A DNA stretch of 64,000 nucleotides. It comes from an uncultured Fibrobacteria bacterium (GTDB lineage: Bacteria > Fibrobacterota > Fibrobacteria > UBA11236). This document shows, piece after piece, positions 51,974-58,713 of this stretch (positions within the stretch are counted from its first letter, which is position 1; each line of letters starts with the position of its first letter). The position numbers and the translations under genes were made by a program. The DNA lies in contig OY970309.1 in NCBI GenBank assembly GCA_963716395.1, positions 1,376,001-1,440,000 of the forward strand, in the 5' to 3' direction. The notes beneath the pieces are model-generated. The model had not been told where the DNA came from, searched no databases, and saw only the letters and a program-made list of their open reading frames with translations.

Positions 51974-52396
51974 TTAAGATTCCCAGGGATTCAGGATTTT
52001 CGCGCCCGTCTTCTCGATATCGGCGACATTTCTCGTCACCACGGTAAGGTTGTGGGCGACGGCCGTGGCTCCGATTAATCCGTCCACGGTGGGGATCGCG
52101 ACTCCCTTGGCCTCGGCCTCCCCTTGCATATGGCCCCATGTCTGCGCGATTTCCTCGGTAATCGCCAGGATTCTGCCTCCGAACCGAATACGTAGCTGAG
52201 AATCAAGCCAAGCTTGGAGAGCGGCTTTCCTCTTCATGTCATTGAGTTTGGCGATGCCTTTTTGGATCTCACCCACGGTCAGCACGCTCAGGAAGGTTTG
52301 TTCTTCGTCGCAGTCGACCAACCACTTTGCGACGTTCGGGTCGGGCCTTTTCCGCGACATTTCAGAAACCAGACAGGTGTCCAACAAATACTTCAA
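51974..52396 (-). CDS. vapC: VapC PIN-domain toxin
   Basis: YLLDTCLVSE, LSVLTVGEI, DGLIGATA..HNLTVVTRN. Confidence 0.92.
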   Translation of the reverse strand: MKYLLDTCLVSEMSRKRPDPNVAKWLVDCDEEQTFLSVLTVGEIQKGIAKLNDMKRKAALQAWLDSQLRIRFGGRILAITEEIAQTWGHMQGEAEAKGVAIPTVDGLIGATAVAHNLTVVTRNVADIEKTGAKILNPWES

Positions 52397-52632
52397 AGCC
52401 TTATGTCCCGGGGAAAATCCCGGTTCCTTTCCGTGGAAACCCCCCGGAGGGGGGAAGCGCGAAAGAATTCCGCCAAGTTCCCTTTTCGGCCGATCAGGGC
52501 GCGATAATCCTGCATAGAAAGGATCACGGCGGTTTTGTTGCCATGGCGGGTAATTTCCTGGGGTCCATGGCGAATCGCCTGGTCCACGACTTCACTGAAC
52601 TTGTTCTTTGCTTCTTGCATCTGCCAGTGCAT
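52393..52632 (-). CDS. Phd/YefM-family antitoxin
   Basis: WQMQEAKNKFSEVV..GPQEITRHG..AVILS; overlaps the toxin start. Confidence 0.92.
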   Translation of the reverse strand: MHWQMQEAKNKFSEVVDQAIRHGPQEITRHGNKTAVILSMQDYRALIGRKGNLAEFFRASPLRGVSTERNRDFPRDIRL

Positions 52633-52647
52633 GACACCCTCGCAGTT

Positions 52648-52692
52648 AGTCTAGACTGTCTAGATTATATTCGATTTTATGGCATCCGGCAA
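52648..52692 (-). promoter_or_regulatory. TA promoter with tandem TCTAGA operator palindromes
   Basis: Minus strand TTGCCG (52692-52687), 17-nt spacer, TATAAT (52669-52664); AGTCTAGACT palindrome at 52648-52657 and second TCTAGA at 52659-52664. Confidence 0.7.
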
Positions 52693-52772
52693 GTTTTCCA
52701 GCTTGGTTTCTGCCTTACCTTCGGACCTGGCGGCTCCTGCGCAAGCGGTTTGCGCCGTGCGCCAAACTCCGG

Positions 52773-52820
52773 TTGACGGCGCCGGATTTCAGTATTACCA
52801 TAAATAAATAAGTAATACTG
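52773..52820 (+). promoter_or_regulatory. Promoter overlapped by NikR-type operator
   Basis: TTGACG-N17-TACCAT; perfect inverted repeat CAGTATTAC-N13-GTAATACTG (52790-52820) upstream of the Ni/Co ECF genes, with nikR in the locus. Confidence 0.75.
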
Positions 52821-52970
52821 CCCGTCTCGCCGGCGGGGCGGGCGGCTTACGGATCAAGTGGAATTCGGGGGCTCGCCCATTTTCATTCGGCCCATACTCC
52901 GGCCACTTATGACCAAGTAGTTTTTCGTAATACCCAACGGCTTCGAGAAAGCCCGGGCCGGGAGGCCACC

Positions 52971-54029
52971 ATGCACATGTCCGACGCTTTGATTACCCCC
53001 GCCGTGGGCGGCACCTTCTGGGTGGTTTCGGGGTCGCTCATCGCCTATAGTGCCCACAAGGTGAAGGCCGAACGCGAAGAGTCGATGATCCCGCTCATGG
53101 GCGTGCTTAGTGCTTTCGTTTTCGCGGCTCAGATGATCAACTTTTCCATTCCCGGCACCGGGTCGTCGGGTCATTTGATTGGGGCCATGTTGCTGGCCAT
53201 CTTTCTCGGACCGTACCGGGGATTTCTGGCCATCGCCTCGGTGTTGGTGATTCAATGTCTGTTCTTTGCCGACGGCGGGTTGATGGCCTTGGGGGCCAAC
53301 ATTTTCAACATGGGATTCTTCGCCTGTTTTCTGGCCTATCCTTTAATCTGGAAACCTTGGATGGCGCGCGGTTTTTCGCGCGGGCGGTTCACTGCGGCGA
53401 CCACGGTTGCGGCGGTGATCGCCCTGGTGCTGGGCGCCCTGGGCGTGGTGGTCGAAACCGTGACCTCGGGAATTTCCGATTTGTCTTTCGGCACCTTCGT
53501 CCTGTTCATGGTGCCCATTCACGCCGTGATCGGTTTGGTCGAAGGCGCCGTGACCACCGCGGTTTCGCTGTTCGTCCTGCAGGCGCGTCCCGATTTGATC
53601 CGCCTGGGGAAAGAGGCACCTGCCGGCGGGCCCCGCGGCGTGCGCGTGGGACCCGTCACCGTGGGGTTACTGGTGTCGGCGCTGGCCGTGGGCGGCTTCG
53701 TGTCGTGGTTTGCCTCGATGCGGCCCGAAGGGTTGGAATGGTCGCTCATCCAGACCACCGGGCACATGCCACAGGCCGAGACCAAGGGCGTCAAGGGTTT
53801 CCTCGACCGTTTGCAGCATCGCCTCGCGCCTTTGCCCGAATATGATTTTCGCGGCGCGCCCAAAGCCACGGTGAACAACCCGCCCAGCAAAACCGGCACC
53901 TCGCTTTCGGGCCTGCTGGGGGTGGGCCTGGTGTTGGCCCTGGCCGCGGGGCTGGGATTTCTCATGCGCCGCCTGGGCCTGAAACGCGAAGCCCGGAACG
54001 CGGCCTCGCCTCCGGAGCCCAGCGGTTGA
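52971..54029 (+). CDS. Ni/Co ECF transporter substrate component fused to PDGLE domain (NikMN/CbiM-like)
   Basis: N-terminal MHMSD, QMINF..GSSGH, DGGLMALGAN, PEGLEWS, PLPEY. Confidence 0.9.
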   Translation: MHMSDALITPAVGGTFWVVSGSLIAYSAHKVKAEREESMIPLMGVLSAFVFAAQMINFSIPGTGSSGHLIGAMLLAIFLGPYRGFLAIASVLVIQCLFFADGGLMALGANIFNMGFFACFLAYPLIWKPWMARGFSRGRFTAATTVAAVIALVLGALGVVVETVTSGISDLSFGTFVLFMVPIHAVIGLVEGAVTTAVSLFVLQARPDLIRLGKEAPAGGPRGVRVGPVTVGLLVSALAVGGFVSWFASMRPEGLEWSLIQTTGHMPQAETKGVKGFLDRLQHRLAPLPEYDFRGAPKATVNNPPSKTGTSLSGLLGVGLVLALAAGLGFLMRRLGLKREARNAASPPEPSG

Positions 54030-54772
54030 AGCGGCTCACCGAAGTCCGCCGCCTGTCGAAAAGCGAAGTCCGGCGGCGGGTCGATCTGGACTCGCGGGCC
54101 TTGATCGTGGCGGTTCTCCTGTACATTCTCTGCGTCGTCAGCGTGGGCAAATATTCGGTGGAACGCGTGCTGATCTATTTCGCCTTTCCCTTGTTTACCG
54201 TTCTGGCCCTGGGTCTTCCCCTGCGGCCCATCGTGCGGAAATTGATCTTCGTTTCTCCCTTCGTTCTCCTCATCGGCGCCTTCAATCCCCTGCTCGAACC
54301 GCGGCCCCTTCTCCAGATATTTTCCGTTTCCATGTCGGCCGGCATGGCCTCTTTCATTGTGATCGGCTGCAAAGCCGTGCTTTCGGTGGTCGCCGTGGCC
54401 GTGCTCAGCGAGTTGCTGCCGTTTGAGGAAATCGGCGCGGGCCTGCAAAGGCTCAAAGTGCCCGAGGCCTTCGTCGTGCAACTGCTCTTTGTATATCGTT
54501 ATTTGTTTCTGTTGGTGGAGGAAGCGCAAGCCATGCAAAAGGCCCGCGATTTGAAGTCGTTCGGCCGCCGGGGATTGGGTTTGCGTTCGACCGCGTCGCT
54601 GCTGGGCAATCTTTTTTTGCGTACATTGGATCGCAGTCTGCGCATCCACCGTTGCATGGTGTCGCGCGGCTTCAGCGGTTCTTTTCCCATCGCGCCCATC
54701 CGGCCTTTTGGATGGAAAGATTCGGCCTTTCTCGGCGCAGTGGTTTTACTCTTGGCCGGCGTAAAACTCTGA
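54026..54772 (+). CDS. Ni/Co ECF transmembrane component (NikQ/CbiQ)
   Basis: YRYLFLLVEE, LFLRTLDRS, MVSRGF; TTG start coupled to the upstream stop. Confidence 0.88.
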   Translation: MKRLTEVRRLSKSEVRRRVDLDSRALIVAVLLYILCVVSVGKYSVERVLIYFAFPLFTVLALGLPLRPIVRKLIFVSPFVLLIGAFNPLLEPRPLLQIFSVSMSAGMASFIVIGCKAVLSVVAVAVLSELLPFEEIGAGLQRLKVPEAFVVQLLFVYRYLFLLVEEAQAMQKARDLKSFGRRGLGLRSTASLLGNLFLRTLDRSLRIHRCMVSRGFSGSFPIAPIRPFGWKDSAFLGAVVLLLAGVKL

Positions 54773-54789
54773 AGGCATCGAAAACCGGC

Positions 54790-55557
54790 ATGAGTCATCA
54801 CCTCGTCATCGCCGAAAAGCTTTGCTACCGGTACTCCGACGGCACCCAGGCTTTGCAGGATGTGGATTTCACCATCCACCACGGTGAATCGGTGGGCGTG
54901 ATCGGCGCCAACGGGGCCGGCAAGTCGACCCTCATCAACCATTTGAACGGATTTTTCCTTCCCACCTCGGGGCGGGTGGTCATCGGCGACACGCCGGTCG
55001 ATCGGCATTCGCGCCGGGAAATCCGCAAGCGCGTGGGGGTGGTGTTCCAGAACCCCGACGATCAATTGTTTCTTTCCCGCGTCTGCGACGACGTGGCCTT
55101 TGGCCCGCGCAATCTCGGCCTGCCCGAAGAGGTGGTGGAACGGCGCGTGCGCACCGCGCTGGAATTGCTGCGCGCCTGGGAGTTGCGCGACCGGCCTTCG
55201 CATAACCTCTCCGACGGACAAAAACGGGCCGTGGCCATTGCGGGCGTGCTGGCCATGGAGCCCGATGTGCTGGTCATGGACGAGCCGACTTCAACCTTGG
55301 ACCCGGGCAATCGCCGCAAAATCATCAACTTTCTCCGGGATTTCGGGCATACCCGCATTCTCGTGTCGCATGATCTCGATTTCATCTGGGAGGTCTGCGA
55401 TCGCGTCCTGATTTTGAGCGACGGCAAACTGGCCGCCGAAGGCGAGGCCCGCACGCTGCTTTCCGACGCGGCCTTGCTGGAAGCCTGCGGATTGGAATTG
55501 CCGCTGCGCCTGCAAGGGGATCCGCGTCACGCCCCGGCGGAATCGCGGCGCGGCTGA
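54790..55557 (+). CDS. Ni/Co ECF ATPase (NikO/CbiO)
   Basis: GANGAGKS, FQNPDDQLF, DVAFGP, MDEPT, SHDLD. Confidence 0.9.
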   Translation: MSHHLVIAEKLCYRYSDGTQALQDVDFTIHHGESVGVIGANGAGKSTLINHLNGFFLPTSGRVVIGDTPVDRHSRREIRKRVGVVFQNPDDQLFLSRVCDDVAFGPRNLGLPEEVVERRVRTALELLRAWELRDRPSHNLSDGQKRAVAIAGVLAMEPDVLVMDEPTSTLDPGNRRKIINFLRDFGHTRILVSHDLDFIWEVCDRVLILSDGKLAAEGEARTLLSDAALLEACGLELPLRLQGDPRHAPAESRRG

Positions 55558-55565
55558 GGAGAACA

Positions 55566-57278
55566 ATGCGTCTAGCGTACCGTTTGGGAATTCTGGCTTG
55601 GGCGGCCGGCGCATTGCCGGCCGGCGCGCACACTTTTCCCGTCAGCGATATCGATCATGTCAGCGAAATCCGCATCGACCGCGACAGCATCACCATCGCC
55701 TACGGCATCTCGATCTCCGAGTTGGAGGCCCTGCGCGGAATTTTCGACATGAACCGGGGCCGCGACTACGCCATCAGCAACACCGAGTGCTACGAGTATT
55801 TCAGCAGCCTTTCCTACGACATCGCCCGCGGCGTGCGCTTTTTCTGGGATGGCCGTCTCCTGCAAGTGGAAAACCCGCGCCGTTTCGAATTGCGCAAACC
55901 CTACGGCATGACCTACCACTATGTGGCCCATCTCGATTCGGTCACAAGCGGATTGCACCAATTTCTGTTCCTCGACACCAACGATCAGCACACTCCGGGC
56001 AAAGACACCATTCGCGTCGCAGCCGGGCCGGGGGTGCAGTTGCGGCGCGCGCAGACAGAGCGGCGCCGCGCCCAGGCCTGGGTGGCCGTGGGCGACGTGC
56101 CGGACACGGGCTTGCCCGCCGAAGTGCCCAAGCAGGTGTGGAATGAGAATGGAAATGTCGCCACGACGGCTTCCACGACAGACAAGGTGACGACCGACAC
56201 CGCGGCGGCCAAAGACAATTTGATGCCCTGGTTTTCGGGCGCCGGAGCCAATCAGGGCAATACCTATCAAAGGGTGAAGGGTAAAATCGAGGCGGCGCTG
56301 CAAGGGAAACTTTCGTGGTTCATCGTGTTGACCACGCTTTTCCTGGCCTTTATCGTGGGGGCTTTGCACGCCCTGCAACCCGGGCACGGCAAAACCCTGG
56401 TGGCCGCCTATCTGGTGGGCTCAAAGGGAACGATTTGGCATGCCGTACTGCTCGGCGCCATCGTCACCTTTACCCATACTTTCAGCGTTTTTATCCTGGG
56501 CCTGGCCGCGCTGTACCTCTCGGCCTATGTTCTGCCCGACACCTTGAATTTCTGGTTGAGCATGGTTTCCGGCGCCGTGGTATGGGGTATGGGCATGTGG
56601 CTTTTTCTGCGCGGCTACCGGCGTTGGGTCTTGCACCGTGAAGGCAAAATCGACATCATGGACCATGGGCACACCCATATGTTCGGAGGAGGCCACGGCC
56701 ATGCGCATGGGGGACATGATCACGATCACCCGCATCACCATGAACAGGATCACCACGATCACGATCATGACCAAGGGCATGATGCCGAACCGGATTTGGG
56801 CCAAGAATATTCCGTGATTTCCAAAGCTTCCGGCGCCGCGCACTTTCGTTTCGGCCCCGGCAGGCAACCCCATGAACACGAACCCGAAAGCTCGCATGCG
56901 CATGCTTTGGAACACGGTCATTCCCATGTGCCCAAGCGCAAGGAAGAAGTCACGCTTTGGAGCCTGTTCACCTTGGGCGTAGTGGGCGGCCTGGCGCCTT
57001 GCGTCGACGCCATCGTGCTGCTGCTTATCGCCGTGGCCCTGCACCGCATCGCCTTGGGGCTGCTCATCATCCTGGTGTTCAGCCTGGGCATCGCCACGGT
57101 GCTGGTGTCGGTGGGCATTCTCATGGTCAAGGCCAAGGGCCTGGTCGACCGCCTGGATCGCGGCCGCAACATGCTGGCTTGGCTGCCGATGGTGAGTGCC
57201 GGCATCGTCACCGTGATTGGAATCACGATGATTATCAAATCTCTTACCGCGATCGGCTGGATCCGGTTCGGATCTTAG
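55566..57278 (+). CDS. RcnA-like Ni/Co transporter with N-terminal periplasmic domain and His-rich loop
   Basis: Signal peptide ending AGA-H; HALQPGHGKT, VTFTHT, GLAPC motifs; His/Asp-rich central loop. Confidence 0.85.
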   Translation: MRLAYRLGILAWAAGALPAGAHTFPVSDIDHVSEIRIDRDSITIAYGISISELEALRGIFDMNRGRDYAISNTECYEYFSSLSYDIARGVRFFWDGRLLQVENPRRFELRKPYGMTYHYVAHLDSVTSGLHQFLFLDTNDQHTPGKDTIRVAAGPGVQLRRAQTERRRAQAWVAVGDVPDTGLPAEVPKQVWNENGNVATTASTTDKVTTDTAAAKDNLMPWFSGAGANQGNTYQRVKGKIEAALQGKLSWFIVLTTLFLAFIVGALHALQPGHGKTLVAAYLVGSKGTIWHAVLLGAIVTFTHTFSVFILGLAALYLSAYVLPDTLNFWLSMVSGAVVWGMGMWLFLRGYRRWVLHREGKIDIMDHGHTHMFGGGHGHAHGGHDHDHPHHHEQDHHDHDHDQGHDAEPDLGQEYSVISKASGAAHFRFGPGRQPHEHEPESSHAHALEHGHSHVPKRKEEVTLWSLFTLGVVGGLAPCVDAIVLLLIAVALHRIALGLLIILVFSLGIATVLVSVGILMVKAKGLVDRLDRGRNMLAWLPMVSAGIVTVIGITMIIKSLTAIGWIRFGS

Positions 57279-57580
57279 GCACCGTCTTTCCGCTTTTTCC
57301 CGCGCCGGCGCGCCTCCGGGTGGGCGTGATCATGCGCGGTGCGCTCATGGCCCGCATGAAAATGCTCGTGCTCCCCGTGCTCTCCGGCATGCCGGTGATC
57401 CGAACCGGCGCTCTGCACCCGCTTGCCGGCATGCGTATGGGTGTGATCGTGGGCATGGGAATGCCGGTGCGTATGCGCGTGGGTGTGTTTTTTCCCCTCA
57501 TGCACATGGGTGTGGGAATGCGCATGGGCGTGCCCATGTTCGTGTTCGTGGCTGTGTTCGTGGAGCGGGGCGCCGTTCAC
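57275..57580 (-). CDS. Histidine-rich (HX)n small protein, putative nickel storage
   Basis: GTG overlapping the nikR stop (GTGA) with GAGG upstream; 101 aa with 31 His. Confidence 0.75.
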
Positions 57581-58011
57581 GGCTTTTCCTCGATTTGGGC
57601 GGTGCGCACCAGTTTGGAAAATTTGACCCCGCGCAATCCGCCGATCTCGACAGCGATGCGTTCGATGTCGGCCGGCGAACCCTGGATGAAAATGGTTTCC
57701 AGACAATTGTGGTGATCGAGATGCACATGGGTGCTGCACAACACGTTCAGGTTTTTCTGATGCTGGGCTTCGGTGAGCTGGTAGCCAAGATTGCGTTGAT
57801 GGTGGTCGTAAATCAGGGTCAACACGCCCACCACCTTGGCGCCCTGCGCGTTCCATTTGGTGGCGATCATCTGTTCGCGAATCAGGTCGCGCACGAATTC
57901 CGAACGCGAGGAATAGCCTTTTTCCGTGGTGCGTGAATCGAGTTCGTCCAACAGCGATTGGGGCAAGGAAATGGAAAACCGGATGACCGGGTCGGGTTTG
58001 CGGGATTTCAC
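57577..58011 (-). CDS. nikR: Nickel-responsive regulator NikR
   Basis: [20 protein letters not shown] ribbon-helix-helix; YDHH; [11 protein letters not shown]. Confidence 0.95.
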
Positions 58012-58316
58012 GGGATATCCTTTCCGGGATGTAACAAAGTAATGAATCGCCTTTTCCCTTCGCGAGGCCCCTGACGTCGATTTTCCGGCTTTCGCCCCGG
58101 TTTGGCTGCCGGCACGCGCGTTTTCGCGTCTTCCGAGCCCGGCCGCAGTGCGCGTGCTCCAAGCCGGCGACGAAACCTAGGACTTGTTCCCGGGCTTCAC
58201 AATTCCAGGCAATGTTTCATTTTCTGTTACAACAACTTTTCGGGGAATAGCAAACAAAATGAAGTAAGAAATCGTCCCGAAGTAGCCACAGTAAGGGATT
58301 AGAGAATTTTAACTAC

Positions 58317-58345
58317 TTGACATTATAATTAAATCAAACTATAAT
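58317..58345 (+). promoter_or_regulatory. Perfect-consensus sigma70 promoter
   Basis: TTGACA (58317-58322), 17 nt, TATAAT (58340-58345) in an AT-rich tract. Confidence 0.8.
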
Positions 58346-58403
58346 TTTAGATAGTAAAGTCAAAAGCTCCTCGTATTTCATCCCATAGAAAAGGCCTGAT
58401 ACT

Positions 58404-58622
58404 TTGATTGCGCAGCATTATATCCGTCGACAACAACTGGAAGATCTGTTTCAAAAGAAAAGCGAAGCCCCCATGGCGCCGGAACGAAAAAGGATTCCCC
58501 GCCGACCCTGCGGGCATGAAACCTGGTTTCCCACCTTGGAAAAGTGCCCGTATTGCGGCAGCACCGCCAAGGTGGTGACAGGTGTCATCGCCAAGCCCTT
58601 GATTCAAAACGGCCACTATTAA
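58404..58622 (+). CDS. Small putative zinc-ribbon protein
   Basis: CGH-x8-CPYC; downstream of a consensus promoter; start uncertain (TTG 58404 or ATG 58473). Confidence 0.5.
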   Translation: MIAQHYIRRQQLEDLFQKKSEAPMAPERKRIPRRPCGHETWFPTLEKCPYCGSTAKVVTGVIAKPLIQNGHY

Positions 58623-58713
58623 AAAGCAAAGGCTTCACGGCCCGCTTTCAAGTGAATACCCCGGTTCGGGTTGTTCGGCCACAACAATCGGCTTGAAAGA
58701 CAATTCAATACTT

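Follow-up and report, generated by a model that had tools for sequence, protein, structure and literature searches.

A histidine-rich reading frame overlapping the nikR stop codon in an uncultured Fibrobacteria bacterium: a candidate nickel-buffering protein

Does the DNA between the nickel sensor gene nikR and a convergent NicO/RcnA-like gene of an uncultured Fibrobacteria bacterium encode a protein and, if so, what might that protein do? The question is raised by a very histidine-rich open reading frame (ORF) of 101 codons that begins on the stop codon of nikR. The window, i.e., the whole stretch of DNA analysed here, comprises 64,000 nucleotides of contig OY970309.1 (assembly GCA_963716395.1, positions 1,376,001 to 1,440,000), and positions are counted within it unless a genome position or another locus is named. 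We hold with moderate confidence that the ORF encodes a lineage-specific cytoplasmic Ni(II)-buffering protein that is co-expressed with NikR. The features of the ORF from which this reading starts are as follows:

57275..57580, reverse strand: His-rich ORF of 101 codons plus TAA, from translation and composition
57500..57562, reverse strand: first strictly alternating His-X run, residues 7-27, with 11 His
57488..57499, reverse strand: E-G-K-K linker, residues 28-31, which joins both runs and forms the hairpin turn in the AlphaFold2 model
57431..57487, reverse strand: second strictly alternating His-X run, residues 32-50, with 10 His
57287..57310, reverse strand: basic tail RRRGKKRK, residues 91-98
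57577..57580, reverse strand: GTGA overlap, made up of the GTG of the ORF (57580-57578) and the stop codon TGA of nikR (57579-57577)
57588..57591, reverse strand: GAGG, a Shine-Dalgarno-like motif 7 nucleotides before the GTG and within the last codons of nikR

The predicted product of 101 residues contains 31 His, 13 Ala, 10 Gly, 9 Glu, 8 Arg and 6 Lys, and Cys, Met, Trp, Tyr and Ile are all absent. Besides the two long runs there are two shorter H-X-H-X-H stretches, at residues 71-75 and 83-87, and the C-terminal end reads [11 protein letters not shown]. The predicted product has neither a signal peptide nor a membrane segment. Translation verified what the initial annotation of this DNA had described, namely a Cys-free frame of this length and His content with a basic tail, and two alternating runs joined by EGKK.

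The GTG that overlaps the nikR stop, and the GAGG ahead of it, can be read directly from the sequence, as had been claimed. The ORF lies in the -1 frame relative to nikR. Its start overlaps the upstream stop and its Shine-Dalgarno motif falls within 5-9 nucleotides (a 7-nucleotide spacer), which is the arrangement expected of a translationally coupled downstream gene of an operon. The C-terminal NikR residues encoded over the GAGG are not conserved in the homologs from L002 and L003, the loci of the closest relatives with NikR (64-65% identity). At the other end, the TAA of the ORF (57277-57275) shares two bases with the TAG (57276-57278) that closes the convergent 570-residue NicO-like gene, the rcnA-like stop of the initial annotation. 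The ORF list shows the ORF solely as the tail of a 295-residue frame (57275-58162, antisense-free) that runs through nikR in another frame, and in this sense it is indeed buried. All of the earlier statements about the sequence were confirmed as correct.

The His content of the ORF stands out against the genome as a whole. In a six-frame scan of all 3.75 Mb, the ORF held the densest 40-residue His window (19/40), followed by the loop of the neighbouring NicO-like protein (17/40); the remaining windows held at most 15/40 and resembled off-frame noise, and 117 windows contained 10 His or more. The His pattern in the ORF far exceeds chance. A DNA pattern for (His-X)8 matched the genome seven times, always on the reverse strand, while the reversed control pattern gave no match. 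Many matches to the same pattern elsewhere in the phylum are perfect hexamer repeats; in the ORF the X codons vary, and it is thus no fresh hexamer microsatellite.

The base composition and codon usage of the ORF resemble those of coding DNA. Its CAC:CAT ratio of 16:15 is close to the 55:45 of the long ORFs in the genome, and such a balanced mix is expected if His is the selected residue, with the opposite strand reading as an unselected mix of Val and Met. The synonymous codon score of the ORF is 0.28, or 0.41 without His, as compared to 0.31 +/- 0.20 for 100-codon pieces of long ORFs, -0.11 and -0.32 for the two shifted frames and 0.16, 0.06 and -0.39 for the antisense frames. The raw codon log-odds are higher for the in-phase antisense frame than for the ORF (39.2 vs 27.4) and do not discriminate, since this difference simply reflects the rarity of His. 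The G+C content stays at 0.63-0.67 across the ORF with no intergenic dip, whereas in the true intergenic stretch at 58175-58474 it is 0.33-0.39. Both synonymous codon choice and G+C content therefore look like those of coding DNA. A simple scan of the minus strand found no terminator-like site between nikR and the ORF.

Four soil-metagenome runs contain minor portions of this DNA, and their short contigs were aligned to the window. They cover 57184-57373 (11 differences), 57420-57569 (7 differences) and 57506-57645 (6 differences), each with 0 gaps; positions without contig cover, e.g., 57374-57419 and 57848-57915, are uninformative. Over the ORF the contigs are ∼94-96% identical to the window, and no insertions or deletions are listed. 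Five of the listed differences fall inside the ORF, three of them synonymous third-position changes and two of them changes of residues other than His (Glu28 and Arg92), such that no His is altered and no new stop arises. The nikR gene shows 28 of its 34 listed contig differences at third codon positions. One more divergent contig, ∼83% identical in its nikR part, extends beyond that gene by 18 unaligned letters, which spell His-Ala-His-Asp when translated in the frame of the ORF, and another contig record resembles a length variant, the unaligned part of which also reads as alternating His. These features of the contigs hint that the His-rich frame may be conserved in near relatives.

The foremost alternative to a nickel-buffering protein is that the frame is an untranslated or functionless relic or by-product, i.e., a decayed His-rich fragment or an old hexamer expansion in the 298-nucleotide gap between the convergent genes, a gap that would also hold the terminator of the cbiMQO-NicO transcript. 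We consider this explanation unlikely, yet one to be taken seriously, and the results that weigh against a buffering protein are gathered here. The ORF is an orphan in homology searches. A word-indexed protein search left none of 1069 candidates at E <= 0.001 and, at E <= 10, seven proteins that were mostly translations of Thr-His repeats; a word-indexed search at shorter length gave no match. A HMMER scan of 1.84 billion representatives produced one match (E 6e-04), a low-complexity repeat artefact, and no family match was obtained from Pfam, NCBIfam or the PDB. The ORF is also not annotated: it is absent from a collection of 15 billion proteins, although the NikR and the NicO-like protein of the same genome are included there, which upholds the earlier description of the ORF as hidden. 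The ESM Atlas offered only unnamed clusters (84-96 residues, 0.91-0.93, low recognition), a lead at most, and no named cluster. The sole prokaryote-like weak match, P0007 (a public record of 177 residues), had an E-value of 2.6 and was rejected as no usable homolog. The second half of P0007 is (His-X)n-rich and free of Cys; possibly this half is an independent small protein rich in His, the start of which was called too far upstream.

The same picture emerged from the phylum. A six-frame search of 296 genomes, including this one, found the ORF in none of the 295 others; besides the self-match there were nine marginal matches (E 0.002-0.01, 17.5-20.6 bits), six of them inside open frames of 169-571 residues and three crossed by stop codons. 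Matches to the (His-X)8 DNA pattern across the phylum were transporter termini, loops and microsatellites, with no counterpart of the ORF among them. The conservation of the frame in relatives, which the initial annotation had named as a check, is thus favoured by the gap-free short contigs of near relatives and not by any other phylum genome. Even for those near relatives the contigs are tiny and 18 of their differences are unlisted, and they therefore do no more than hint at an intact frame.

No counterpart of the ORF was found behind nikR in the other NikR loci scanned either. Three of 40 relatives, and none of 11 genomes from the same genus, yielded a NikR, so the locus is patchy in the group, and in L002 and L003 nothing His-rich follows nikR. 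A search downstream of nikR homologs had been proposed by the initial annotation; in a six-frame scan of 163 other NikR loci (3 from relatives, 80 from species genomes and 80 from metagenomes), a small (His-X)n ORF after nikR was detected in none. The NikR proteins of the two sets of 80 are only 52-64% identical to the one studied here, and these loci are therefore uninformative on close relatives. His-dense windows were present in 18/83 and 20/80 of the loci and none was a small ORF after nikR; those that were tested or recognisable were N-termini of HypB or a transporter loop, and several are without classification. In these searches the ORF appears to be confined to one lineage.

Two further points against a buffering protein concern the stretch itself. 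Other frames across it are also open, such that an open frame by itself is uninformative, and low-complexity frames can persist without function. The stretch moreover contains, on the opposite strand, a candidate terminator:

57415..57492, forward strand: RNA hairpin followed by U6, antisense to the second His-X run and the K-K codons, from fold prediction

The overlap of the convergent stop codons leaves terminators no room, and it is possible that this hairpin and its U6 terminate the cbiMQO-NicO transcript. However, the predicted fold (-39.6 kcal/mol) is no stabler than that of shuffled sequence (z-score -0.09), and a simple terminator scan flagged only a small sub-hairpin within it.

An origin of the stretch as an inverted duplicate of the neighbouring NicO loop was considered and rejected. 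BLASTP between the ORF product and the NicO-like protein gave an E-value of 0.024 with 12/31 identities, and the inverted DNA matches reach just 72-75% and are accounted for by shared His codons; the similarity is thus compositional only, which also speaks against a relic. A functionless frame would further have to be reconciled with the start codon and Shine-Dalgarno motif placed exactly at the nikR stop, with a codon choice and G+C content like those of coding DNA, and with the retention of the stretch without insertions or deletions in relatives that have diverged by ∼5%. Should the frame nevertheless be untranslated, it would warn that even a conspicuous low-complexity frame may simply occupy the space between two convergent genes.

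The case for nickel as the ligand, on the reading of the ORF as a buffering protein, comes from its surroundings:

57577..58011, reverse strand: nikR, 144 residues, ribbon-helix-helix and NikR C-terminal nickel-binding domains (Pfam, NCBIfam)
55566..57278, forward strand: NicO/RcnA-like membrane protein, 570 residues, with a His-rich loop, convergent with nikR and the ORF (Pfam, NCBIfam)
52971..55557, forward strand: cbiM (with a PDGLE domain), cbiQ and a cbiO-type ATPase, an energy-coupling factor (ECF) nickel/cobalt importer (Pfam, NCBIfam)
52792..52818, no strand assigned: perfect inverted repeat GTATTAC-N13-GTAATAC, candidate NikR operator, ∼150 nucleotides upstream of cbiM

The gene upstream of the ORF is, by its family matches, a true and typical NikR (NikR_C, 1.4e-27; RHH_1, 8.4e-08; NF001884, 7e-59). 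The convergent NicO-like protein matches PF03824 (5.2e-15) and NF007454 (3.4e-38), the latter with 131.5 bits and thus under the cut-off of 195, and the cbiM-cbiQ-cbiO genes lie upstream of its gene on the same strand. This gene content, together with the candidate operator, marks the locus as a module for the uptake and homeostasis of nickel. The NicO-like protein also has an extra N-terminal region of ∼240 residues without a Pfam match. Its homolog in the relative G030 (L002 2-1357) is likewise extended at the N-terminus, by at least 120 residues in a frame that the locus edge truncates, and its His loop is much longer (52 His across the frame); in G030 the gene immediately precedes nikR, with both on the same strand.

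The candidate operator is the sole perfect copy of its sequence in the genome. A copy with two mismatches at 52907-52933, likewise a candidate operator, is also upstream of cbiM. In delta-proteobacteria, GTGTTAC-[N13/14]-GTAACAC has been predicted as the NikR signal of nikMQO operons (PMC545781); the perfect repeat has the architecture of that signal and departs from it by one base per half-site. A strict search for GTTAC...GTAAC NikR boxes gave no matches, and upstream of nikR itself there is only a poor candidate with three mismatches (58224-58250). No Rfam family, including the NiCo riboswitch, was matched in 52000-58700 at E <= 1. Another two-mismatch copy of the palindrome is located elsewhere in the genome, at 1894388-1894414.

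Elsewhere the genome encodes a urease alpha subunit and has one match to a [NiFe]-hydrogenase-type large subunit. The GTPase of the HypB/UreG type beside urease gave the best HypB score of the genome, 62.1 bits against a cut-off of 121.2, and is probably UreG; no HypB above cut-off was found in the genome. The role of a nickel buffer or store would fit a genome with urease and a [NiFe]-hydrogenase-like gene that is without a His-rich HypB.

If the ORF is a nickel-buffering gene, we infer that it would work as follows. nikR and the ORF would share one transcript, and ribosomes that finish nikR would restart at the overlapping GTG, aided by the GAGG. The resulting cytoplasmic product is predicted to be largely disordered, and its 31 imidazoles, set out as (His-X)n, may coordinate several Ni(II) ions. 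With Hpn as a guide (5 Ni for 28 His), each monomer would be expected to take up a handful of Ni. The product might then buffer or store cytoplasmic nickel in a fixed ratio to the sensor, while NikR would repress the importer operon via the palindromes upstream of cbiM. A more ambitious version, which we regard as rather doubtful, holds that sensor and buffer form a pair wired by translation, in which a buffer made in fixed stoichiometry to NikR competes with it for Ni(II), or passes Ni(II) to it, and so sets the concentration at which NikR shuts off the importer; the gene would in that case be a recent one, arisen de novo or by repeat expansion in one soil lineage.

The initial annotation had also suggested that the product may fold as a beta-hairpin. 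The single-sequence AlphaFold2 model does place strands at residues 19-27 and 30-38 around an E-G turn, with a predicted local distance difference test (pLDDT) of 92 and 82 for the two blocks, which would put a hairpin at the centre of the product. Two further short strands are modelled at residues 47-50 and 53-56, and the remainder is modelled as disordered. The mean pLDDT of 63.4 and the predicted template modelling (pTM) score of 0.30 are low, however, and so the model weakly suggests a central hairpin at residues 19-38.

How would such a protein compare with known His-rich nickel proteins? A study of gastric Helicobacter describes Hpn and Hpn-2 as small, cytoplasmic and very His-rich proteins for nickel sequestration and trafficking, with Hpn binding its 5 Ni per monomer, and reports that both genes are upregulated by NikR (PMC4671568). 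It also states that hpn and hpn-2 are annotated in just 11 and 56, respectively, of 305 Helicobacter pylori genomes, with longer frames called instead (PMC4671568), which sets a precedent for such genes being missed. On the description given there, the predicted product resembles Hpn and Hpn-2 in being small, very His-rich and presumably cytoplasmic, in its place in a NikR circuit and in having escaped annotation. It differs from Hpn, in which the His residues are mostly in contiguous stretches accompanied by Cys-Cys motifs, in that its His residues alternate and it has no Cys, as the initial annotation had rightly noted (PMC4671568). Hpn-2 is set apart by a Gln-rich half (PMC4671568), while the ORF is distinguished from both by its basic tail, its length of 101 residues and its physical coupling to nikR. 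The general searches with the ORF, in which Hpn was not aligned directly, gave no Hpn-like match.

The His-rich prefix of HypB is a second point of comparison (NF053667, HypB_prefix_1; HypB, TIGR00073), in that it too carries alternating His-X and is found near or beside nikR. Its usual interpretation is that of a store for nickel. Unlike HypB, the ORF product has neither a GTPase domain nor a Cys motif, and it matched no HypB model in NCBIfam or Pfam. In other taxa, hypB genes with large (His-X)n prefixes lie near nikR: at L020 3438-4220, where hypB directly follows nikR, at L105 3403-4779, with 64 His in the frame, and at L083 5779-6411, one of the Campylobacter concisus loci with such a stretch.

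The (His-X)n chemistry is further shared with the loops of NicO/RcnA proteins and the N-termini of cation diffusion facilitator (CDF) proteins, in which (His-X)8 or longer occurs among family relatives. Those are segments of membrane proteins, whereas the ORF product is free-standing and predicted to be soluble; it matched no Pfam family, the NicO membrane domain (PF03824) included. The product would be analogous, and not homologous, to Hpn and to the His-rich prefixes of HypB. Its strict His-X alternation, its lack of Cys and its coupling to a sensor plausibly make it unusual among free-standing His-rich nickel-binding proteins, and literature searches, covered by titles and abstract openings, yielded no description of such an arrangement.

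The parallel with Hpn also lends itself to an alternative in which the ORF is translated but does not act as a bulk nickel buffer. It might instead be a partner that tunes NikR or supplies the NicO-like transporter or urease maturation with metal, or a protein that binds Zn, Co or nucleic acid. Coupling in a fixed ratio to the sensor would suit a tuning partner, the basic tail RRRGKKRK would suit binding of nucleic acid, and the genome has both urease and the UreG-like gene. Hpn and Hpn-2 themselves act through contacts with UreA, HypA and HypB (PMC4671568). We nonetheless consider such a role improbable, since the sequence points to no specific partner and (His-X)n stretches are generic binders of divalent metals.

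Finally, the His stretch might be no separate protein at all but the C-terminal tail of NikR, joined to it by a one-base error in the A4 run at 57584-57587 or by a -1 ribosomal slip on A-AAG shortly ahead of the nikR stop, which would yield a NikR of ∼245 residues with a nickel-gathering tail. The His frame is indeed the -1 frame of nikR and is open across the junction, a single additional base in the A4 run would bring them into one frame, and A-AAG is a slippage-prone site in Escherichia coli. This explanation is nevertheless very improbable. Record 10 of run X4, a contig built from short reads of a different strain, spans 57506-57645 and with it the junction of the two genes; it has 0 gaps and no listed insertion or deletion, which argues against a one-base error. 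In addition, NikR ends where its homologs end (136-140 residues in L002 and L003), a His-rich extension of nikR occurs in 0/163 NikR loci, and the site is no canonical X-XXY-YYZ heptamer and lies in an unremarkable local fold (z -0.57). The split NikR tail that the initial annotation had named as a possible refutation of the ORF is thus opposed by an independent contig.

If the ORF is translated as a nickel buffer, it would be a small, Cys-free nickel-binding protein that relies on His only and is tied to its nickel sensor both physically and translationally, an arrangement to which the other 163 NikR loci offered no parallel. Such a protein would also represent a free-standing His-rich nickel store that is independent of the Helicobacter proteins and found outside pathogens, and a further case of annotation pipelines missing such genes, and its (His-X)n pattern would provide a simple model of how metal induces folding.

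Two minor observations were made along the way. In G001, a genome of the same genus, a 186-codon frame on the reverse strand (L209 1168-1728) combines a hydrophobic N-terminus with a (His-X)n/His-Pro region and a C-terminal end that reads ...RVRGPPRG. NCBIfam gave no match for this frame, and a gene for a TonB-dependent receptor follows closely downstream. In the window itself, an AT-rich gap carries on the forward strand (58317-58345) a sigma-70 promoter that agrees with the consensus in 12/12 positions (TTGACA-17-TATAAT), downstream of which is a 72-residue ORF (58404-58622, forward strand) that is divergent from nikR and weakly matches a zinc ribbon.

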